A DNA stretch of 64,000 nucleotides from a virus. A program made the translations under genes and the position numbers. Each line of letters begins with the position of its first letter. Position 1 is the first letter of the stretch. The notes below the pieces were generated by a model, which was not told the DNA's origin, searched no databases, and worked only from the letters and a program-made list of their open reading frames with translations. The stretch is taken from positions 1 to 64,000 of the IMG/VR virus record IMGVR_UViG_3300033388_006651; one strand, written 5' to 3'. This document shows, in pieces, positions 30,435 to 64,000 of this stretch.

Positions 30435-32063
30435 GTGAGACGACGAAAGAAACAACCTATCCGGGTGACTCAGGGCCTTGCGGCCAGGCGCCGTATGCTG
30501 GCTGGGGTGGCTGAGATGACCCGAGTGGTCGCCGCTACCTACGGACCCCGAGGGCGCACCGTGATGCTGGATCGAGCCGGCGGTGTTCTTTCCACGAAAG
30601 ACGGGGTGTCTGTCGCGTGGGAAATCGAGCCGGCAGACCCGCTCGCACGGCTGGGAACCCGCCTCCTCCAAGAAGCCTGCGACAAGGTCAACAAAGCATG
30701 TGGGGATGGCACGACGACCACTGCGATTTTGGTTCATGCGATCCTCCGACAGAGCCTCAAGTACGTGGCCGCCGGAGAGCACCCAGCTCGGCTTGCCCAG
30801 CACCTTCAACGGATTGCCCAGAGTTTCGAGCACTCCGAGTTATGGGACGTGATGTGCCCCGTTCCCGTCGATAGCGAGCTGCTGATGCGGCAAGTCGCTT
30901 TGACTGCCAGCAACGGAGACGAGGAGATCGCCGACGCCCTTGTGGATGCGTTCGGCCGTGTGGGGTCCGAAGGCATCATCGTGGTCGAGGAGGGGAAGAG
31001 CCGGGGGATCGAGCTCGATCACAAGACCGGGATGGAGATCGAGAAGGGGTGGGAGAGCAGCGATCTCTCTGGCCCTGACGGGGGACCTCGTCACATGGAC
31101 GTGCCGCTGGTTGCGTTGATCGATGCGGAGCTCACGACCTTGAAAGATGTGAGCTCCATCTTGGAGCAGGCTAGTCAGTTCCCGCACCCCCTCATCATCG
31201 TGTCGCGTGGGTGCTTCGCTGACGCGCTCAAGGTGTTGATCGCCAACGACCGGAAACTCGAGCGTGGTGACGGGGGCAAGTTCGAGGTGATCGCTGTTCG
31301 ATGTCCGGGCCATATCGATTTCATGCGTTCCCACCTGGACGACTTGGCTGCGCTCACCGGGGCGACCGTGCTCGACCCTTTGGTGACGCCTCTCGACAAG
31401 TTCACGTCGGAGATGTTGGGGTCGGCCCAGACGGCGACGGTGAAGAAGGAGTCCGCGACGTTTGTGGCGTTCGAGGACAAGTTCCCGCTCATCGAAGCAC
31501 GCGTCGAACAGCTTCAAAAAGAGGACACCGGGTTCAGTCACGACGCCGAAGAAATCCGCACGAGGATCGCAAAGCTGACTGACGGGTTTTGCGTAATGCG
31601 AGTCGGTGGGTGGTCCGAAACGGAACTTCGTGAAAAGCGAGCGAGGATCGAGGACGCGCTGGAGGCCCTTCGTGTGGCCATCGACGAAGGCATCGTTCCC
31701 GGTGCCGGGGTGGCGTACTTGGCGCTCTCGAACTTCCTGGAATTCGCCACGGATGGGCCCGCATCGAAGATACTCCAGGACGCGCTCAGGGAGCCTCTCA
31801 GGACGTTGGCCCGGAATGCGGGCAAGGAGGCACCCGTCGTCCTGCAACGCGTCCTGGAGGCGTCTCAGGAGCCTGGAACTACCAAGGCACTGGCCTCCTG
31901 GGAGGCTGGATGGGATGCCCGCACTGACACTGTGCGGGACCTCCGCGATCTCCCCGTCATCTGTGACCCTTTGGCGGTGGTGAAGGCCACCGTGCTCACG
32001 GCGATTTCGACCGCCTCAACCCTGCTGACCGCCGAGGTTGTGATCACGCGGGTAAACTCGTGA
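30435..32063 (+). CDS. groEL: Phage-encoded GroEL/Cpn60-like chaperonin
   Basis: Motifs TYGPRGR, TKDGVSVA, GDGTTT, VEEGK, RVGG..E.E..EK..RIEDAL, EGIVPGAG and DPLAV...TAEVVI. No GGM tail. Confidence 0.9.
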   Translation: MRRRKKQPIRVTQGLAARRRMLAGVAEMTRVVAATYGPRGRTVMLDRAGGVLSTKDGVSVAWEIEPADPLARLGTRLLQEACDKVNKACGDGTTTTAILVHAILRQSLKYVAAGEHPARLAQHLQRIAQSFEHSELWDVMCPVPVDSELLMRQVALTASNGDEEIADALVDAFGRVGSEGIIVVEEGKSRGIELDHKTGMEIEKGWESSDLSGPDGGPRHMDVPLVALIDAELTTLKDVSSILEQASQFPHPLIIVSRGCFADALKVLIANDRKLERGDGGKFEVIAVRCPGHIDFMRSHLDDLAALTGATVLDPLVTPLDKFTSEMLGSAQTATVKKESATFVAFEDKFPLIEARVEQLQKEDTGFSHDAEEIRTRIAKLTDGFCVMRVGGWSETELREKRARIEDALEALRVAIDEGIVPGAGVAYLALSNFLEFATDGPASKILQDALREPLRTLARNAGKEAPVVLQRVLEASQEPGTTKALASWEAGWDARTDTVRDLRDLPVICDPLAVVKATVLTAISTASTLLTAEVVITRVNS

Positions 32064-32892: not shown

Positions 32893-33575
32893 CTCTTTCC
32901 ACGCTCAGCCCGAATCACGAGAAGGTCGCCTGGGCGTGGCTCGACAACCTGGTGGACAGGGCCCAGCGGGGCCAGAAGCGTCCGCCCACACAAACGGTCC
33001 CTGCGGATCTTCCGCCTGCGGTCAAAATGACGCCGCGCGCACGGGAGCAGTCCGTCCAGGATGCGTACGACGCGACGTTGAAGGTCCTCATCGCGACCAT
33101 CAAGTCGGAGATCGGTGGCATCCAGAGGGCTGAGGCCCAGTTCGCACGCCGAGCTGGCGTAGATCCGCTGTACTTCAACTGGTTCCTCATCAACGGGAAA
33201 CATTGGCCCTCGATGTCGAGAGACGCGAACCGGGCTCTTCGAGCGATCCAGAACATCTACCTGTGGTACGGCGCGGTGCCGAGCCACTGGAACAACATGC
33301 AGATCCCTGAGATGGCTCAGAGCCGTGATCGGGATCGTGAATTTAAAGTTTTCGGCAAATGGTTTTTGCAGTCGGTCATCCCGAAAATCGAACGCAAGTA
33401 CGTTCGTGAAATTTACAAACAGTCGCAGGATTTGGTGAAACAGTTCCGAGGCCAGGGCACCCCGCGTGATCCCAAAGCTGCGATCATGTTGATGCGGGAT
33501 TTCGAGAAACGTCTCGTTGCGGATCGCTTCCAACTCAAGCCCGCGGTTCAAGAAGTCGTCGATCTCTTTTCGTGA
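32889..33575 (+). CDS. Hypothetical protein
   Basis: ATGA overlap at 32889, in frame with ORF 32778..33575. Confidence 0.6.
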   Translation: MTLSTLSPNHEKVAWAWLDNLVDRAQRGQKRPPTQTVPADLPPAVKMTPRAREQSVQDAYDATLKVLIATIKSEIGGIQRAEAQFARRAGVDPLYFNWFLINGKHWPSMSRDANRALRAIQNIYLWYGAVPSHWNNMQIPEMAQSRDRDREFKVFGKWFLQSVIPKIERKYVREIYKQSQDLVKQFRGQGTPRDPKAAIMLMRDFEKRLVADRFQLKPAVQEVVDLFS

Positions 33576-33591
33576 GGCGTATAAGTGGGGA

Positions 33592-36500
33592 ATGGATCTG
33601 GACCCGCGCCTCAAGGCAGCTCATGAGCGGCTGAAAGAGATTCGTAACGAAACGAAACTCACCCTCAAGCCAACCCCTTTGCTCAAGACGACCTTCACCG
33701 GGTTCGACGGCGAAGAGCACCCTTTCAACCTGCGGTACTACCAGGTGCAGGGTGTCCTCCACCTGGTGGCGATGAACCGGTTCCTGCTCGGCGACGACAC
33801 CGGCATCGGCAAGTGCGTCGCCCATGACACCCGGATTTTGACCGATCAAGGACTGGTCCCCATCCAGGACCTGTGGGCGGAAGGTCCCTGTGATCTCGAC
33901 AACCACCCCGAACCGGGCACGTTTGTGCCCGCAACGGACCACAAGGTTTGGACAGGCGCGCGGTGGGCGAAGATCAAGTCCTTTTACTATGACGGTGATC
34001 GGCCCACCAAGTACGTCGAGACCCGATACGGGTTCACGGTTGAAGGATCGCATCGCCATCCCATTCTGGTTCGCACGGAAGCAGGAGAAGAATGGCGGCG
34101 CCTTCCTGAAATTCAGGAAGGCGATTACGTTGTCGTCGAACGCCGCAAAGTGCGATGGCCTCAAGAAGCACCGGACCTGACATGGGAGCCCAGTCGAGCA
34201 CCGAACGCCAAGACGTACCCCCTCCCCGCCACACTGACTCCTCGTTACGCGCGATTGCTGGGTTACTTTGTGGCCGAAGGGAACTCCGCTAACCAGTACG
34301 GGTTTACCATCACGCAATACGACACCGAAATTCATGAAGACATCCGGGGGTGTTTGAAAGACGTGTTTGGCTGGGAGGGGAACGAAAACCGCGCCAACCG
34401 AAACGAGGAAATCGTGGTGTCGAGTGTGGTGCTTCGGGATTTTTTGGAGTTCTCCGGGGCAAAACATGTCACCTCGGAAGCCAAGCGGATCCCCTGGTCC
34501 GTCATGCAGGGAACCCAGGACTGTGCCGTGGAATTTCTACGAGGGTTGTTTGAAGGCGATGGGCATGCGCTCGCCATTGGGGGGATCGAATACACCTCCA
34601 AGTCTTTGCAATTAGTACGGGATATCCAGGCCCTTCTGCTTCGATTTGAAATTGTTTCACGAATAGCTGAGAAGGTGATTGATGATGAGTCCTACTGGCG
34701 TATGACCCTTCTTGGTGATGATGGCAGGGTGTTTCGCGATGGCATTGGATTCGTTTCGCGCCGCAAGACCGCTGATCTGCAAGTTGGTCTCGACAAACCC
34801 AGCAACACGAACCACGACATCATCCCTCATGTTGCCCATCTGGTTGGGCCGCTTTACGGAGCCCTGAAAGAAGCAACGCACGTTGGCGGCCCAAACGGGG
34901 CTCGCCAGGGGTCCGGGATCAAGCAGTTTGGAGACAGTTTCCGTAACTCCATCCAGCACGTTTTGGCGGGGCGTCGGAACCTCACGTATCCCAAGCTGCA
35001 AGAGCTTTTGAGCCATGCCGCCGATTTCAATCTCGAGGCCCTCCCAGAGTTCGTAGAGCTTCACCGCATCTCCCAGGACCATCATTTCTACGACCCCGTG
35101 ACATACCTTGACGATGGGGTGTGTCCGCTAATGGACCTGGAGATCGACGCGGAAGAGCACTCGTTCGTCGGCAACGGCATCGTCAACCACAACACGATTC
35201 AAAGTATCGCGGCCCTATGTTTCGTGTGGGCCAAGGACCCGAACATGAAGGCCGTCATCCTCACCAACAAGTCGGTGGTGGGTCAGTGGGCGCTCGAGTT
35301 CGACAAGTTCTGCACGCCGGACAACATCAACGTGATCACCTGCGTGGGCTCACCCACCAAGCGCGAGAAGATCTACAAGGAGTTCGAGGCGTCCACCGGG
35401 CCGACCGTCCTCATCATGGGGTACGCGACCTCTCGTCGGGACATCAAGTTTCTCCAGCACTGGAAGGACTTCGTCCTGATCTGCGACGAGGCCACTGCGT
35501 TCAAGAACCCATCCACGCAGACCTACAAAGTCATCCGTCACCTGTCCCGCAATGCGAGTCGGTTTTGGGCGCTCACCGCGACACTGATCAAGAACAATCT
35601 CATCGAGGGGTTCGCCATCTACTCGCTCCTCATTCCCGGCTTGTTCCCGAGCTCGAAGAACAAGTTCATGATGGAGTACTGCCTCACGCGGTTGCAGCCC
35701 ATCCCGGGTAGTCGCCGACAGATTCCGGTCATCATCGGATACCGCAGCGACCAGATCAAACGGTTCAAGGACAAGATCGATCCGTACTTCCTGTCGCGCG
35801 CCAAGTTCGACGTGGCCAAAGAGCTGCCCGTGCTCCAGATCAAGCAGCACAAGTGCGGCATGACTCGGGCCCAGCAGGCCAAGTACCAGGAGGCCCTCGA
35901 AGGGTTGCTGGAGAAGGACCTCTTGGACGAGGAGGTCGAGACCACGAAGCTCACCGCGCTGATCTACTGCCAGCAAATCGTGGACCATCCTGAGCTTGTT
36001 GACTGCGAAGGCGACAGCGACAAGATGAACGAGCTTTTCACGTTGTTGACCGAGGGGGATCTCGCAGACGAGAAGGTCATCGTGTTCAGCCGGTTCCGCA
36101 AAATGATCGACAAGCTCGAGGAAGTTGCGAGTTCCAAGAAGTACAAGATGAAAACCGTTCGGGTCACCGGGGCCGAAAACGAGGACGAGCGCAAAGCTGC
36201 GATGCAGGCGTTCCAGGACCCGAACTCCGATGTGCGCATCTGCTGGATCACGGAAGCGGCCAAGGAGGGCATCAATCTCCAGGCTGCCAAGGCCCTCGTG
36301 TTCTACGACAGCCCATGGTCTGCGGGAGACTACCTCCAATGTCTTGATGACGACACCGAGATTTTAACCCGGAGGGGGTTCGTGGGGCGCACAGAGATCC
36401 GAAAAGAGGACGAGGTCGCGGCTTTCAACCAGAACACTTCTGAGATTCGGTGGCAAGCCATTCGATCCATTACAGATCGTCCTTTGGCGCAGGGGGAGCA

Positions 36501-37650
36501 GATGTTCGAGATTAACTCTCGGCACCTGAATCTTCGCGTAACAGGGGGACACCGCATGCTTTACAGACGGAAGACACTCAAGGACAAGAAAGCCGTGTGG
36601 CCGGAAGCCTGGAGGATCGAGACTGCTGAGGAGATGGCCTCGGAGAGGTCTCACTACCAAGTTCCAGTCTCGGGTGAGCAGGAGGCCGAAGGACTCCCCC
36701 TTACTGAAGACCAACTTGAGTTTATCGGGTGGGTTCTATCAGATGGATCGCTTAACAAAGCGAACCGGCAACTCGTCATTGCGCAGGCCGTGCATCAGCC
36801 CCAAATTCACGATCTTCGTCATTGTATCCAGAAATGCGGTTTTGACTGGAGCGAGTATGACCGAGACCCTGAAAAGTGTGGGGGATTTCCGAATGGAAAA
36901 CCTCAGATCGTGTTCTCCATCCCGAAAGGCACTCAGGGAGGATCCCGTGCTCGTAACGGGTGGAAAGATCTCGAACCCTACCTGGACAAGGATTTCCCTC
37001 TCCTGTTGGAGAAAGCCACAAACCATCAACTTGCGGCCATGCTTCGAGGACTGCACCTTGGAGATGGCGCCAAATATCGCGGATCAGATTGGACGCAAAG
37101 GTCGTACCACATCTACACAAGTAGAAAGATCTTCGCGGACAGGCTGCAAAGCCTATGCGTGCGGCGAGGCTTCCGATGCAACGTGAGGCACGAAAAAGGA
37201 GGGCCGGGAAAAGCCCGTGAGAAGGACGGGTTTCATCTCCACATCAAGAAAACTAGTTCTTGGTCCCTTTGTGGCAACCTGAAACATGGTGACCGTTCTC
37301 ATCTGACTATTTCCCAAAGTAAACCAGAGGAACGCGTGTGGTGCGTCGAGAATGACATGGGGACCCTGGTCACTCGTCGTGCTGGGAAGGTGGCGGTCGT
37401 TGGAAATTGCTTGGGCCGCATGATCCGCATTGGATCGACACACGACCGCTGTTACGCGATCCACCTCGTAGCCAAGGGCACGATCGACACCAAGGTCATG
37501 GGCGTTCTGCGCACCAAGATGAAGCTCATCGAAGCCGTGATGGGCAAGCGCCTCAAGGGCGAAGGGATGGAGGACGTGGTGGTGTCATCCGACAACAGCA
37601 TCGACGACATTTTCTCGGCCCTCCAGGCGGACGCAAGGAAATACGCATGA
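33592..37650 (+). CDS. SNF2-family (SF2) helicase interrupted by two inteins
   Basis: Motifs LRYYQ, GDDTGIGK|T, CDEA, LTAT, EKVIVFS, EGINLQ and Q|CLGRMIRIG. The ATG at 33592 follows GGGGA. Confidence 0.9.
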   Translation: MDLDPRLKAAHERLKEIRNETKLTLKPTPLLKTTFTGFDGEEHPFNLRYYQVQGVLHLVAMNRFLLGDDTGIGKCVAHDTRILTDQGLVPIQDLWAEGPCDLDNHPEPGTFVPATDHKVWTGARWAKIKSFYYDGDRPTKYVETRYGFTVEGSHRHPILVRTEAGEEWRRLPEIQEGDYVVVERRKVRWPQEAPDLTWEPSRAPNAKTYPLPATLTPRYARLLGYFVAEGNSANQYGFTITQYDTEIHEDIRGCLKDVFGWEGNENRANRNEEIVVSSVVLRDFLEFSGAKHVTSEAKRIPWSVMQGTQDCAVEFLRGLFEGDGHALAIGGIEYTSKSLQLVRDIQALLLRFEIVSRIAEKVIDDESYWRMTLLGDDGRVFRDGIGFVSRRKTADLQVGLDKPSNTNHDIIPHVAHLVGPLYGALKEATHVGGPNGARQGSGIKQFGDSFRNSIQHVLAGRRNLTYPKLQELLSHAADFNLEALPEFVELHRISQDHHFYDPVTYLDDGVCPLMDLEIDAEEHSFVGNGIVNHNTIQSIAALCFVWAKDPNMKAVILTNKSVVGQWALEFDKFCTPDNINVITCVGSPTKREKIYKEFEASTGPTVLIMGYATSRRDIKFLQHWKDFVLICDEATAFKNPSTQTYKVIRHLSRNASRFWALTATLIKNNLIEGFAIYSLLIPGLFPSSKNKFMMEYCLTRLQPIPGSRRQIPVIIGYRSDQIKRFKDKIDPYFLSRAKFDVAKELPVLQIKQHKCGMTRAQQAKYQEALEGLLEKDLLDEEVETTKLTALIYCQQIVDHPELVDCEGDSDKMNELFTLLTEGDLADEKVIVFSRFRKMIDKLEEVASSKKYKMKTVRVTGAENEDERKAAMQAFQDPNSDVRICWITEAAKEGINLQAAKALVFYDSPWSAGDYLQCLDDDTEILTRRGFVGRTEIRKEDEVAAFNQNTSEIRWQAIRSITDRPLAQGEQMFEINSRHLNLRVTGGHRMLYRRKTLKDKKAVWPEAWRIETAEEMASERSHYQVPVSGEQEAEGLPLTEDQLEFIGWVLSDGSLNKANRQLVIAQAVHQPQIHDLRHCIQKCGFDWSEYDRDPEKCGGFPNGKPQIVFSIPKGTQGGSRARNGWKDLEPYLDKDFPLLLEKATNHQLAAMLRGLHLGDGAKYRGSDWTQRSYHIYTSRKIFADRLQSLCVRRGFRCNVRHEKGGPGKAREKDGFHLHIKKTSSWSLCGNLKHGDRSHLTISQSKPEERVWCVENDMGTLVTRRAGKVAVVGNCLGRMIRIGSTHDRCYAIHLVAKGTIDTKVMGVLRTKMKLIEAVMGKRLKGEGMEDVVVSSDNSIDDIFSALQADARKYA
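33814..35193 (+). mobile_element. Intein with LAGLIDADG endonuclease in the Walker A motif of the SNF2 helicase (460 aa)
   Basis: Starts CVAHDTRIL and ends GNGIVNHN followed by Thr. Internal LLGYFVAEG and FLRGLFEGDG motifs. Confidence 0.9.
36340..37407 (+). mobile_element. Intein in helicase motif VI of the SNF2 helicase (356 aa)
   Basis: Starts CLDDDTEILT and ends VWCVENDMGTLVTRRAGKVAVVGN followed by Cys. Internal FIGWVLSDG and LRGLHLGDG motifs. Confidence 0.88.
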
Positions 37651-38804
37651 TCGATCCCGTGACTGTCCGGCGTCCCCTCGGAGACAACGCGTCTACCGCA
37701 ACGCTCTACTACGGGGCCGACTGTCGAGAGACTCTGCGAGGGATCCCTGAGAAGTCCGTCCATACCGTTGTCACGTCGCCCCCGTACTTCGGTCTACGGG
37801 ACTACGGGACCGGTGATGCGCAGATCGGTCTCGAGAAAACACCACAGGCTTTCGTGGCCCAGCTCGTTGAAGTGTTCCGTGAAGTTCGACGCGTACTTCG
37901 TGACGACGGCACTCTGTGGCTCAACCTGGGAGACAGCTACGCCAACGACACGAAATGGGGAGGCAGTAGCGGGGGCAAGCACGCCGCCGGGCTTCACGGT
38001 GCTACTGGCGTGGGACGAGGGAAGCGCCACACGGGGCTCAAGAGCAAGGATCTGATCGGCATTCCTTGGATGGTGGCGTTCGCTTTGAGAGCAGACGGCT
38101 GGTACCTGCGCAGTGACATCATCTGGTCCAAGAGCTCGTGCATGCCCGAGAGCGTGAAAGACCGCCCAACGAAAGCACATGAGTATCTGTTCCTGCTGTC
38201 CAAACAGCCCAAGTACTTCTACGATTCGGATGCTATCCGGGTGCCGGTGGCGAACCCAAAAGCGGTCGCGCACGGTCTTGGTTCTGTCGAAGCGTGGTCG
38301 GCTACACGCAACAACGCTTACGGCTTAGGAGACGCGTCGAAGGGTCAGCCGAAGGGACATGCGGGCACGCACAAGTCTGGCAAGAACAAACGCTCGGTGT
38401 GGAACGTGAACCCCAAGCCGTACCCGGGGGCGCACTTCGCCGTGTTCCCGCCTGAGCTGATCAAGCCGTGTATTTTGGCGGGCACTTCGGCAAAAGGCTG
38501 CTGCCCTGACTGTGGAAATCCCTGGGAGCGGACGGGATCGCGGGGGAAAGACGCGGTTACGTGGCGCCCCACCTGTGAGTGTGATGCAGGGGACCCAGTT
38601 GGGTGTACGGTTCTGGACCCTTTCAGCGGAAGCGCCACCACCGGATTCGTGGCCCTGAACCATGGCCGGGACTACGTCGGCCTGGATCTGAGTGATGAAT
38701 ACCGGGCTCTTGCCGAGGCCCGTCTTCTCGGTGAACGTCCGCCAAAAGAAGATGAAAATGGCGACGACGGGATCTTGGAGTTCTTCGGGGTAGAAGATTC
38801 GTGA
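37647..38804 (+). CDS. Beta-class DNA amino-methyltransferase (SPPY, likely N4-cytosine)
   Basis: ATGA overlap at 37647. Motifs TSPPYF, RVLRDDG, HFAVFP and VLDPFSGSATTG, with a CxxC...CxC insertion. Confidence 0.88.
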   Translation: MIDPVTVRRPLGDNASTATLYYGADCRETLRGIPEKSVHTVVTSPPYFGLRDYGTGDAQIGLEKTPQAFVAQLVEVFREVRRVLRDDGTLWLNLGDSYANDTKWGGSSGGKHAAGLHGATGVGRGKRHTGLKSKDLIGIPWMVAFALRADGWYLRSDIIWSKSSCMPESVKDRPTKAHEYLFLLSKQPKYFYDSDAIRVPVANPKAVAHGLGSVEAWSATRNNAYGLGDASKGQPKGHAGTHKSGKNKRSVWNVNPKPYPGAHFAVFPPELIKPCILAGTSAKGCCPDCGNPWERTGSRGKDAVTWRPTCECDAGDPVGCTVLDPFSGSATTGFVALNHGRDYVGLDLSDEYRALAEARLLGERPPKEDENGDDGILEFFGVEDS

Positions 38805-43859: not shown

Positions 43860-44095
43860 TGAAAGAGGACAATCGGGTGTTCGTTCGTGTTCGTGGAGGT
43901 TGGCGTGTGGTGGACCCCGGTTGTGCTCTTGACGTGATGCCCCCCGACGGGTGGCCAGATCTCTCCTACGCTCTTCGGACGTATTCGGATCTCGTCATCT
44001 GGCGTGGGAGAATCGTCAAAGATCGATGGAACCTTTTCAACCTCACTGAGTTTTTGGCTGAACTCCGTGAACAAGGGATTTCGGTCGAGTCATGA
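43856..44095 (+). CDS. Small hypothetical protein (79 aa) between the methyltransferase halves
   Basis: ATGA overlaps at both ends. Confidence 0.55.
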   Translation: MMKEDNRVFVRVRGGWRVVDPGCALDVMPPDGWPDLSYALRTYSDLVIWRGRIVKDRWNLFNLTEFLAELREQGISVES

Positions 44096-45555
44096 AAATC
44101 GTAACGGTCACTCGGAAGCCGTGCACGTCGTCGAGTACGACGGGCAACGTGGTCGAGCATGACGCTGGTGCGATCAACATCGAGGCGTCGCGCATTGGGT
44201 TCGCGGACGCGCAAGACTTGGCGGTAGTCAAGATGAAAAACCCCAGCAACGGTGGGGCCGAGGCTGCTACCTCAGCCGTGTACGGGGCGAAACGTCCGCA
44301 GGGAAAGGTCACGGAGACAGGGCGTTGGCCTGCGAACCTGATCCTTCAACACAAATCCGGATGCAAACGCGTCGGGACCACGACAGTTCCTGGCTACACC
44401 ATCAACCGCTGGACGGATGGTGCGAAACCGTTTGGAGGGGGCGCCGGACACGAGTACGAGAGTGAAAGGCAGCCGGATGAGGAGGTTCCTGTCTGGGAGT
44501 GCGAGGATGGATGCGCTGTCAGAGGACTCGATGGGAAATATACGCCACCGCCAAAAGCGGGGAACCGTAGAAAATCTCTGAGGGGTACCACTGACGGGGG
44601 GGTTTATGGGGCGTGGGGGCCGGTGAGCCATAACCCCGACTATTTCAAGGATGATAATGGCACCGCGTCTCGCTTCTTCAAACAGGTACAGGGAACGGAC
44701 ATGAACGATCTTTCTCCCGAACTCATCGACTACCTCACCACGATGATCTCACCACCGCCCGAGTGCGAGCCTTTGGTGCTCATCGAACTCAATCTCGATG
44801 ACGTGGCGTGGGAACAGTATGAAGACAGCTCCGTCCACGGCATCATCACCGTCGGCAACCCTGAGCCGCACATGGACGCCATCGATCGTGTCCTGCGACC
44901 CGGTGCCCATCTCCTTGTCATCGCGCCGGATGAGGAGCCCGCAGGGTACCCCGCTGCCTGTGCGATCGAAGACTTCGGCTACGAGATCCGGGACGCCATC
45001 GCATTGCTCGATGAGCCCGGTGGTTTCCACTACGTCGCCAAAGCCAGTTCAGCCGAACGCAACGCTGGCATCCTGCTCCATGAAACGGAGACGGGGCGGA
45101 AGGTCCAGAATGAGCATCCAACAGTTAAGAGTATCGGCGTGATGGAGGCCCTTCTCCATGATGTACCCAAGGGAGCCCTCGTCGTCGATCCTTTCATGGG
45201 ATCCGGGACCACGGGCATCGCCTGTCTTCATACGGGCCACAACTTCATCGGCATCGACCAGGACGAGAACTACCTGCGCATCGCCGACCAACGGATCCGT
45301 CACTGGGACCGCGCCAAGAATGCGTGGAACGGTGCGACGATCGAGTCCGAAGCTGAGTTCGAGGAATCCGAAGAGCCGATGGAGCTCGACGATTTGTTTG
45401 GGTTGGCGGTCGAGGACCCCACCCCTGTTGGAGACTGTCGAGTTTGCGGAGAGCGGGACGAGGAAGAGGAGATCAAAGAGGGCGGCGAACGATTTGAAGT
45501 CTGTTCCCAATGCGCAGCCGATCGACCTCGTGTCCGAGCTTTCCTTGCGAAGTGA
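44092..45555 (+). CDS. Methyltransferase-like protein with the SAM-binding motif but no DPPY
   Basis: Motifs GAINIEASRI, GRWPANL, ASRFF, HPTVK and VVDPFMGSGTTG. The catalytic motif position reads HGIITVGNP. Confidence 0.75.
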   Translation: MKIVTVTRKPCTSSSTTGNVVEHDAGAINIEASRIGFADAQDLAVVKMKNPSNGGAEAATSAVYGAKRPQGKVTETGRWPANLILQHKSGCKRVGTTTVPGYTINRWTDGAKPFGGGAGHEYESERQPDEEVPVWECEDGCAVRGLDGKYTPPPKAGNRRKSLRGTTDGGVYGAWGPVSHNPDYFKDDNGTASRFFKQVQGTDMNDLSPELIDYLTTMISPPPECEPLVLIELNLDDVAWEQYEDSSVHGIITVGNPEPHMDAIDRVLRPGAHLLVIAPDEEPAGYPAACAIEDFGYEIRDAIALLDEPGGFHYVAKASSAERNAGILLHETETGRKVQNEHPTVKSIGVMEALLHDVPKGALVVDPFMGSGTTGIACLHTGHNFIGIDQDENYLRIADQRIRHWDRAKNAWNGATIESEAEFEESEEPMELDDLFGLAVEDPTPVGDCRVCGERDEEEEIKEGGERFEVCSQCAADRPRVRAFLAK

Positions 45556-59372: not shown

Positions 59373-60212
59373 ATGGCCCAGAAGATGTGGCTGGTCCCGG
59401 CCCTCGACGGGCTCATAGATTTGAACGACGACTCGGTTGACCTCATTGTCACCGATCCGCCGTACGACACGCTCGAGAAATGGCGCAACATGGGGACGAC
59501 GACCCGGCTCAAGAAGTCGAAGCAGTCGAGCAACGAGTGGTTCCCGACGTTGACTTTTGCCGAGCTCGAGAAGGTCTTCGTCGAGTGTTTCCGGGTCCTC
59601 AAGAAGGGCACGCACATGTACATCCTGTGCGACGAGGAGACGGGTGACGCGCTCAAGCCCATCCTCAAGGCGATTGGGTTTGACATGCGCAAGAGCCTGA
59701 TCTGGCACAAGGTCGGCAAACGTATCGGGGTCGATGTGGACTGCCCTCGCTGTGGCGAGTACGAGATGGACGACCACACACCCGGGACACCCGGCATGGG
59801 TTACCCGTACCGCAGCCAGTGGGAGATGGTGCTGCTCGCCCAGAAGGGCAAGCGCAAGCCTCCCGAGAACCGATCAGTCCGCAACGTGTTGACCGTGCCG
59901 TGGATCAAGCGTAAAGGCGCTTACCCCACCCAGAAGCCTCATGAACTTGCTCAAACTTTCATAACTCAGAGTAGCTCACCAGGAGATTTGGTGTTGGATC
60001 CCTTCGCGGGATCCTGTTCGACTGGTTACGCGGCTTTTTTGGAAGGCCGGGATTTTTTGGGATTCGACATCAGTGAAAAAGCCGTTAAGTTTGCCCGGGA
60101 GTGGCAATCCTCGTGGCTCAAGATTGAGGCTGAAAACATCCCAGAATCCCCTGGGACCCCGTCTATCCTGGATCTGTTTGGAGCGCCCGAAGAATCCGCT
60201 GACGACACATAG
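59373..60212 (+). CDS. Beta-class DNA amino-methyltransferase (DPPY, likely N6-adenine)
   Basis: VDLIVTDPPY, RVLKKG, YPTQKP and VLDPFAGS. Confidence 0.88.
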   Translation: MAQKMWLVPALDGLIDLNDDSVDLIVTDPPYDTLEKWRNMGTTTRLKKSKQSSNEWFPTLTFAELEKVFVECFRVLKKGTHMYILCDEETGDALKPILKAIGFDMRKSLIWHKVGKRIGVDVDCPRCGEYEMDDHTPGTPGMGYPYRSQWEMVLLAQKGKRKPPENRSVRNVLTVPWIKRKGAYPTQKPHELAQTFITQSSSPGDLVLDPFAGSCSTGYAAFLEGRDFLGFDISEKAVKFAREWQSSWLKIEAENIPESPGTPSILDLFGAPEESADDT

Positions 60213-62435: not shown

Positions 62436-62964
62436 CACCCCGGATACCGTCCTCGACCTGTGCGAAGGCGAGGCGTCTTTCTTGACGGCCCCGGTGAACA
62501 ACCGGTTCGACGCGTACCGGGAGTACGAAGTGCTGTGGAAGTATCCGCACCGCTTTGGGGGCTACCGTCGGGGGCTGTGGGAGAAGCTCAGGGACTACAT
62601 CGACACGGGGGTGCGGTGGGGCAACGTCCACGATCTGTTCCAAGCCATGACTTTCCTTGGAGGCGACTGGGTTCCCTTTGACATGCCTGCTGCCAAAAAG
62701 ACGTGGGGATGGTCTCGTCCGGACGGCACCGATCGTCAGAGCGTGCTGATCGACATGGTCAAAGAGGGATGGCACGGCACCCGCCAGGACTTTCGCCGGA
62801 ACTGGCACGAGGAAGGTCCCTTGCGCCCTCTGATCGAAACACCAGAGGGACGCAAGGAGATCGCACGCATGTTGACGACAGGCGATCACTGTCTTGAGTT
62901 CAAGGATGGCGAGTTCGTTCCCGCCATCCTCCGACACCTGGGTTACCAGAGCTCGCTGAGGTGA
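62419..62964 (+). CDS. Hypothetical protein
   Basis: ATG at 62419 after GAGGA, in frame with ORF 62353..62964. Confidence 0.6.
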   Translation: MLNLNDTPDTVLDLCEGEASFLTAPVNNRFDAYREYEVLWKYPHRFGGYRRGLWEKLRDYIDTGVRWGNVHDLFQAMTFLGGDWVPFDMPAAKKTWGWSRPDGTDRQSVLIDMVKEGWHGTRQDFRRNWHEEGPLRPLIETPEGRKEIARMLTTGDHCLEFKDGEFVPAILRHLGYQSSLR

Positions 62965-63621
62965 CCCCTCATGTAGAGCTTGGCTCGCATTGTCTTGTCC
63001 GTGTTGTGGTCGTGGACGGTGTCGCGTTGGATGGCGATTGTCCGGACCTTGTCCCCTCGAGCTCCACCACCGATCTGCTTGCGCCGCTTGGAGTTCCGCT
63101 CTTTGACGCGCTTGGTGGTGCCGGCAACCAGCAGTCGAGCCCGTAGGACCTCTCGTGCTGTCTGTCGGTTGATGGGCTGGCTCCGGCCGCCGTCGACCCG
63201 AACTTTGATGCCCGAGGGCCTGTGGACCAGGATGACGCAGGTATCGGTTTTGTTCCGATGCTGGCCGCCGGGCCCACTGCCGCGAGTGAAGGACTCATCC
63301 AGATCGCGCTCGTCGAGCTCGACCTCGTGGGCCTTCGGTTCTTGCAGGACCGCGACCGTCACCGTGCTGGTGTGGACGCGACCTCGCTTTTCGTTGGGTG
63401 GTACGCGTTGGAAACGGTGACCGCCTGCTTCGTGGCAGAACGCAATGTCAGCGTTCTTGCCGGAGATGCGCATCAGCAAAAAGCCGGCGCGCTCCTCTAG
63501 CAGTTCGTGGTCAAAGGTGCTCCAAAGAACAGTACCGGGTGTAGATGCGATACTGTTCCTGGACCAGATTTTTGGCGTCTTCGCCGCCTTCTGCGGCACG
63601 AATTTCTACGAGAATGCTCAT
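62943..63621 (-). CDS. Class I peptide chain release factor-like protein (about 225 aa), expressed via a +1 frameshift
   Basis: ORF1 (63621-63511) reads MSILVEIRAAEGGEDAK...LEHL*. The +1 frame reads DHELLEE...EAGGHRFQRVPPNEKRGRVHTSTVTVAVL...GPGGQHRNKT...RSQ..N...DKVRT. Confidence 0.9.
63510..63525 (-). promoter_or_regulatory. prfB-type programmed +1 ribosomal frameshift cassette
   Basis: The minus strand reads TTG GAG CAC CTT TGA C: an internal SD GGAG, a 3-nt spacer and CUU-UGA-C. Confidence 0.85.
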
Positions 63622-64000
63622 GACTACTGTCTCTTTCAGCCCCGAACAGCATCGCTTTGGCAAGCTCTGCAAACGAGGACACGGTTACGAGGATACTGGA
63701 AAAAGTCTTCGGTTCAAATCGAACGGAAGTTGTGTGATGTGTGTCCGGGAATCGAGCGCTCAGTACCACCAGGAGCACAAGGACGAGATCCACGCTCGGG
63801 CAAAAGGGTGGCGTGCTGAGAACAAAGAATTTCTTCGTGAGAAGATGAAAGGGTACGAGAAACAGTACGGGAAGACCAAACGGGGACAGGAGGTCCGCCT
63901 TCGAGCTCGAAGATCACGGAAAGCCGAGGGACGGGATAAGATCACCCGCGATAAATACCGTCGAACCAAAAAAGGCCGTGAGTCTCAGCGCCGGTGTAAT
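63620..64000 (+). CDS. N-terminal part of a probable HNH-type homing endonuclease (3'-truncated)
   Basis: Open from the ATG at 63620 to the window end: MTTVSF...GKLCKRGH...R...GSCVMC followed by a basic helical region. The nuclease domain lies outside the window. Confidence 0.55.
   Translation, partial: MTTVSFSPEQHRFGKLCKRGHGYEDTGKSLRFKSNGSCVMCVRESSAQYHQEHKDEIHARAKGWRAENKEFLREKMKGYEKQYGKTKRGQEVRLRARRSRKAEGRDKITRDKYRRTKKGRESQRRCN

Follow-up and report, generated by a model that had tools for sequence, protein, structure and literature searches.

A release factor gene of the RF1 lineage, carried on the minus strand of the genome of a huge marine-sediment phage, is split between two reading frames at a cassette of the kind known from bacterial prfB, and the joined factor is probably made by a +1 slip at CUU-UGA-C, with RF2 activity most likely setting the supply of an RF1-type factor. 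The gene occupies 63621-62943 of the window, by which we mean the whole 64,000-nt stretch analysed (positions 1 to 64,000 of the viral record IMGVR_UViG_3300033388_006651). The prfB frameshift is a textbook recoding signal that acts as sensor and effector at once. Its autoregulatory +1 shift in the RF2 gene, with the arrangement SD-N3-CUU-UGA-C, has been described in a review (PMC5009743) and a survey (PMC12421855).

A mechanical ORF list starts the phage gene at a GTG at 63599, which lies in the +1 frame. As the earlier note had proposed, the real N-terminus is in the other frame and begins at ATG 63621-63619; all of the letters and coordinates that the note gave for the split gene hold when checked against the record. 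The zero-frame ORF (63514-63621, minus strand) has 36 codons (MSILVEIRAAEGG...SLEHL), the last being the slip codon CTT, and encodes strand 1 and the decoding helix (alpha5, EIRAAEGGEDA...) of release factor domain 2. It aligns with RF1 residues 89-121 of the structures 2fvo/1rq0, and the N-terminus of the relatives matches that of the window, with the pattern M-x-x-(I/L/V)-(I/L/V)-V-E-I-R. The junction reads TTG GAG CAC CTT TGA C and contains every element of the prfB-type cassette, i.e., an internal Shine-Dalgarno-like GGAG (63520-63523, minus strand) followed by the 3-nt spacer CAC (63517-63519), and then the shift heptamer CTT TGA C (63510-63516, minus strand), made up of CTT at 63516-63514, TGA at 63513-63511, and the +4 C at 63510. 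The +1 frame ORF (62943-63512, minus strand; 189 aa plus TAA) runs from GAC at 63512 to TAA at 62945-62943 and encodes the remainder of domain 2, the GGQ domain 3, and domain 4. By alignment and the joined translation, the catalytic GGQ (residues 118-120) was placed at 63261-63269 (minus strand), and the tripeptide "anticodon" position, P74-P75-N76, lies at 63393-63401 (minus strand), where RF1 has PxT and where Thr186 is thus replaced by Asn.

Skipping one T at the junction gives a joined protein of 225 aa with the Pfam domains PCRF (residues 2-89) and RF-1 (residues 98-205), and this protein matches the RF1 structures 2fvo/1rq0 over residues 89-315 (E 1.7e-40), unbroken over the junction. 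Homology therefore resumes in the +1 frame beyond the in-frame stop, as it does in prfB-type genes, and zero-frame readthrough of the UGA yields a translated sequence without homology. The full cassette, GGAGNNNCTTTGAC, occurs once in the window against 0.03 occurrences expected from shuffles, and GGAG-N3-CTTTGA is found a single time across the whole 146.8-kb record. The window's SD, a 4-nt GGAG, is weaker than the GGAGG usual in the family. The release factor start codon (63621-63619, minus strand) overlaps the likely starts (ATG 63614 or ATG 63620; window 63614-63622) of a divergent plus-strand ORF, whose product is Cys-rich and very basic (…FGKLCKRGHGYEDTGKSLRF…), and between the two there is zero intergenic room for either promoter. 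A scan of 62700-64000 for sigma-70 promoters and intrinsic terminators found none.

The possibility that the extra T is an assembly error, raised in the earlier note, was checked against contigs assembled in other studies. A contig from a hydrothermal vent (X2) shows no differences and no gaps over 63472-63628, a contig from sediment (X3) likewise shows none over 63370-63624, and a cold seep relative (X5) has substitutions only at the site. Because contigs of other studies span the site without a gap, the extra T is real.

The gene product is a class-I release factor of the RF1 lineage, with domains 2-4 complete and without domain 1. Among NCBIfam models, prfA scores highest (192 bits, E 1.2e-56), followed by prfB (127 bits, E 8.8e-37), PrfH (71 bits), and ArfB (41 bits), all of them under their cut-offs: the RF1 equivalog models NF001859 and TIGR00019 give 192.4 against 400 bits and 183.7 against 423 bits, respectively, the PrfH model TIGR03072 gives 70.9 against 166.65 bits, and the ArfB model NF006718 gives 40.7 against 100 bits. 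The prfA match is limited to model positions 105-334, and domain 1 is therefore missing. Two other candidates were ruled out, ArfB (a GGQ domain only) by the presence of a codon-recognition domain as well as by its score, and PrfH by its score and by a structural comparison (TM 0.63 versus 0.91 for RF1). When aligned with bacterial RF1 and RF2, the protein shows the RF1 Gln three residues ahead of the tripeptide, a loop of RF1 length, and, beyond the long helix, a stretch of RF1 type.

The fold was predicted for a natural in-frame relative and its alignment, rather than for the window's own joined protein. The resulting family model (pLDDT 87.5) superposes on ribosome-bound RF1 with a TM of 0.91-0.92 and an rmsd of 1.7 A. 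In this model, three residues form the loop that links the decoding helix (residues 15-34) to the strand after it, and the gate falls there, so that the family model and the RF1 alignment both bear out the earlier claim that the site lies directly after the decoding helix of domain 2. The reading of the gene as prfB-like stood as far as the cassette is concerned; the RF1-type nature of the product and the missing domain 1 had been overlooked. The joined protein retains Gln181 and Thr194, which read the third base, and His193, which stacks (roles as given in PMC3974865). In contrast, the equivalents of Glu119 and Thr186, positions that touch the first and second stop-codon bases (PMC3974865), are Asp15 and Asn76 in the window, the latter making the tripeptide PPN and not the RF1 PxT (among gated relatives, PPT is found in 55 and PPN in 30). 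With two stop-codon-contacting residues changed, the codon specificity predicted for the factor is uncertain.

The check suggested in the earlier note, namely whether the cassette is conserved in homologues, was carried out with a profile scan that matched 535 viral and at least 595 metagenome stretches. From each set the 80 best were taken, and bacterial genomes were scanned too, giving a typed sample of 178 unique genes, and the cassette proved to be conserved: a +1 shift is required in 119 of the 178. The gates of these 119 genes are CTT_TGA (87), CTT_TAG (28), CTT_TAA (2), TTT_TAG (1), and CCT_TGA (1), so the slip codon is CTT in 117, and the site falls in the window's alignment column in 113. 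A +4 C follows the stop, whichever it is, in 98 of the gated genes (TGA-C in 68/119), and 94 of them have an SD core, which is set off by a 3-nt spacer in 84 of those 94. Across the 113 main-site relatives, CTTT is 99-100% conserved, the +4 base is C in 81%, and a GGAGG-like profile is seen at -8..-4 despite 41 different tripeptides being encoded there, which means that it is the RNA that is constrained. At the same site, CTT and the SD core are both missing from ungated relatives, and natural in-frame relatives have L-D, L-S, or L-E at the junction, matching the slip prediction. The close relatives on viral contigs (L001 and L005-L019) all pass from frame 1 into frame 2 at this position, and in the nearest GenBank phage match, a 485-kb uncultured phage, the gene is split at the same codon by CGG AGG GGT CTT TGA C. 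Taken together, these comparisons indicate that the junction is a programmed +1 signal.

No tandem double frameshift site was found in any of the 119 gated genes. Synteny of the window with its closest relative (L048) is only partial. A further 80 loci were left untyped by the classifier; nearly all are small GGQ-only, ArfB-like genes outside the family, and one (L190) is a further frameshifted member. Small GGQ-only proteins (…FRGSGPGGQHRNK…), resembling ArfB-type peptidyl-tRNA hydrolases, are encoded on many phage contigs (L025-L037) and are unrelated to the gated family beyond the GGQ domain.

In addition to the main site, the cassette occurs at two other positions. Three genes (L020, L021, and L024) carry GGAG-N3-CTT TGA C about 12 residues before the main site, and three others (L023, L072, and L082) carry CTT TGA C about 20 residues after it; a seventh gene (L060) has the main site, shifted by an insertion. 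In an RF2-rooted tree, the gated short factors group together (support 95) as the sister of full-length RF1, away from RF2. The early-site and late-site groups are clades of their own (support 99 and 100) and belong to a small lineage of which an ungated gene is a member too. The main clade has 127 members, of which 111 are frameshift-gated, 10 have an in-frame stop, and 6 are ungated. Several of the in-frame TGA codons sit at the canonical RF1 Gly-Trp position. Readthrough of UGA usually inserts Trp. The earlier note had suggested that the cassette was acquired independently of that in prfB, and this is supported and can be extended: it occupies three positions in three clades, and prfB has its site in domain 1, a domain that this factor lacks, so the acquisition was independent of prfB. 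The placements on the tree show that the cassette arose separately at least three times within genes of the RF1 lineage.

Two low-GC (28-29%) huge-phage relatives, L002 and L003 (LR745206 and LR756504), have a gene that is otherwise single-frame and contains in-frame TGA codons (L002:3124, L002:3148, and L003:3121), a pattern expected of TGA-recoded phages. Given these codons, their RF1-type gene would likewise be unreadable while UGA terminates efficiently.

The window represents a huge-phage replication module that encodes a DnaB helicase, a DNA polymerase, an NAD-ligase, methyltransferases, and GroEL, and CheckV estimates the 147-kb record to be 28% complete. An alternative genetic code was considered and rejected: under code 11 the genes are long and unbroken, TGA is used more often than either other stop, and no suppressor tRNA was found. 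Among confident long ORFs of the whole record, TGA makes up 44-48% of stops, TAA 16-20%, and TAG, the RF1-specific stop, 30-37%, an unusually high share for a genome of 59% GC; this suggests a real demand for RF1-type activity. Just past the window end, an array of 20 tRNA genes (64348-86201) begins about 700 bp upstream of the release factor gene and comprises Lys x4, Thr x3, Asp x2, Val x3, Ile x3, Met x3, His, and Phe. The four tRNA-Lys genes share the strand of the release factor gene, and neither a suppressor tRNA nor a tRNA-Leu was found.

Elsewhere in the window, a GroEL-like chaperonin is encoded at 30435-32063 (plus strand; phrog_5725, E 3e-94), and at least three DNA methyltransferase genes lie within 23 kb (37407-38804, 44092-45555, and 59373-60212, plus strand), adjoining the genes for the DnaB helicase, the NAD-dependent ligase, and the DNA polymerase. 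A 1377-aa SNF2-family helicase (33517-37650, plus strand) is split by an intein that itself carries a LAGLIDADG homing-endonuclease domain (Pfam SNF2-rel_dom, Helicase_C, LAGLIDADG_3, Intein_splicing, and Hint_2). Giant ORFs of 777, 1832, 1143, 1086, 1185, and 1901 aa follow one another over 499-29345 (plus strand) and have zero Pfam matches.

A member of the gated family (L053) is also present in the chromosome of a Nannocystaceae isolate (ST9), with the cassette CTGGAGGGA CTT TGA C, where its neighbors encode a TPR protein and unknown proteins. The same isolate's own prfB carries CGGAGG CAT CTT TGA C, so the signal is in use in a likely host lineage. The ST9 assembly additionally contains, on a small contig (L130; G001 contig 7, 4055-4897), a piece of prfA that looks enterobacterial and is interrupted by several stops; it is probably a contaminant or sequence of low quality.

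If the gene works as prfB does (PMC5009743, PMC12421855), the full-length factor would be made only when peptidyl-tRNA-Leu sits on CUU with UGA in the A site, slips from CUU to UUU, and lets translation resume at GAC. With the internal GGAG, 3 nt upstream, base-paired to the 16S rRNA anti-SD, this slip would be favored, and its competitor would be termination at UGA-C, a weak stop context. Output of the factor would then go up when UGA termination, i.e., host RF2 activity, is slow and down when it is fast, and in this prfB-derived sense the gene may act as the termination sensor that the earlier note took it to be. The prfB product reads its own gate codon; here, HMM scores, motifs, tree, and fold all make the product RF1-type, an expected reader of UAA and UAG, and the gate is UGA. 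Because of this mismatch, the loop would most likely be cross-regulatory and probably not self-limiting as that of prfB is. There are points against such a circuit, the comparatively weak SD of the window being one. A factor reading only UAA and UAG would not directly relieve a shortage of UGA termination, which makes it hard to see why selection would favor a UGA gate. In addition, relatives interchange UGA, UAG, and UAA gates and in-frame UGA, and the well-supported branches alone force at least 10 changes between UGA and UAG; that these occurred without a matching change of tripeptide fits poorly with a circuit tuned to one host factor.

These same gate changes are what a second explanation would accommodate, namely true self-autoregulation, in which a broadened factor also reads UGA (or all three stops) and the gate senses the factor's own activity, as in prfB. 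An omnipotent factor would permit the gate to flip freely, and the gate codon indeed shows no covariation with the tripeptide (TGA: PPT 39, PPN 23; TAG: PPT 15, PPN 7), no relation to local GC (p 0.73), and none to the gene's own terminal stop, and the gate frequencies (UGA > UAG > UAA) track the known order of stop-codon leakiness. The residues at the codon point the same way, as the equivalent of Glu119, which contacts U1, is Asp in 112 of the 119 gated genes as opposed to Glu in 36 of 39 full-length release factors, and the window has Asn for the second-base reader Thr186. Nevertheless, Gln181, His193, Thr194, and the RF1-length loop are kept, most relatives have a canonical PxT (PPT), and an RF1-type third-base reader combined with tolerance of G at the second base risks reading UGG. 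We regard self-autoregulation as rather unlikely. Its molecular premise, a relaxed second-base discrimination (through Asp for Glu119 family-wide and Asn for Thr186 in the window's subgroup) by which UGA, UAG, and UAA would all be terminated, is to our mind just as doubtful. If it were true, every gate variant would be a genuine self-sensing loop, and phages and some myxobacteria would own a single autoregulated, domain-1-less, near-omnipotent bacterial release factor that adds to termination capacity without depending on host RF1, RF2, and RF3.

A constitutive attenuator or timer is a third explanation, and one to which we give little credence: the frameshift would merely fix a low output, or delay a factor harmful in excess, with no sensing. 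Release factor overproduction is toxic in bacteria, strongly for RF2 and mildly for RF1 (PMC12421855), any stop gate, whether a +1 shift or an in-frame UGA at a Trp position, cuts output, and interchangeable gate types suit a generic throttle. However, a weak promoter or RBS would be a cheaper throttle, and what was put together at three separate positions is a prfB-like architecture that is inherently sensitive to termination rate. Finally, it is scarcely credible, and contradicted by the comparative data, that the gene is broken or artefactual (whether as a pseudogene, through an assembly indel, or as two polypeptides made via reinitiation). Although gene callers give a truncated gene, and the public protein entries are fragments of 174-218 aa that cover 77-87% of the joined protein and carry at best the name "peptide chain release factor 1", the identical frame break recurs in more than 100 diverged genes with both halves conserved as protein, the contigs of other studies agree at the site, the +1 frame near the junction is without ATG, GTG, or TTG, the T run of 3 nt is too short for transcriptional slippage, and the invariance of CTT is explained by tRNA slippage instead.

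According to the current view, the frameshift is unique to RF2, its stop is essentially always UGA, and RF1 is not so regulated (PMC12421855). The present family has a prfB-type cassette in RF1-lineage genes of huge phages and Myxococcota-labelled contigs, with UGA, UAG, or UAA gates or in-frame UGA; brought out as well are the lack of covariation between gate and tripeptide, the family-wide Asp, the placements on the tree, the loss of cassette elements in ungated members, the comparison with host prfB, and the agreement of contigs from other studies. The family opens several questions to direct study: whether release factors can be cross-regulated, with RF2 activity controlling an RF1-type factor, how far the ribosome dictates cassette design, how a domain-1-less release factor acts on the ribosome, and why large phages invest in termination capacity. 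For annotation, the consequence is that gene callers cut these genes by about 36 codons throughout public databases.

Among known systems, PrfH is a domain-1-less RF2 homologue that rescues damaged ribosomes and has RtcB as its partner. The window's factor shares with it the absence of domain 1 and a length of about 200 aa, but the match is weak and the codon-reading motifs are kept in the window's factor; no RtcB partner was seen next to the release factor gene. Phage-borne class-I factors as such are known: RF1 and RF2 appear among the huge-phage genes listed by Al-Shayeb et al. (PMC7162821), and Borges et al. report release factors in stop-codon-recoded phages (bioRxiv 10.1101/2021.08.26.457843), in neither case with mention of a frameshift, and the 2016 recoding review contains no phage case (PMC5009743). 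L002 and L003 resemble such code-4 phages, whereas the window's phage uses the standard code. RF1 (prfA; TIGR00019, NF001859) is the best match in both sequence and structure, sharing Gln181, His193, Thr194, the GGQ, and the loop length; the window's factor differs from it in lacking domain 1, in scoring below the equivalog cut-offs, and in having PPN for PxT and Asp for Glu119, and the 2025 prfB survey considered programmed frameshifting unlikely for RF1 (PMC12421855).

With prfB, the phage gene shares the internal SD, the 3-nt spacer, the CUU-U slip site, the UGA, and the +4 C, as well as being a class-I release factor gene with a short zero-frame ORF and its functional part in the +1 frame, and in both the cassette elements are lost in ungated relatives. 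In contrast to prfB, the product is of the RF1 and not the RF2 lineage, and the site lies in domain 2 at codon 36 as opposed to domain 1 at about codon 25, domain 1 being absent here. The stops of the family are UGA in 88, UAG in 29, and UAA in 2, whereas TAG was found in 0 of 8,164 prfB motifs (PMC12421855). The family also differs in having three cassette positions in three clades, with huge phages and Myxococcota-labelled contigs as the carriers.
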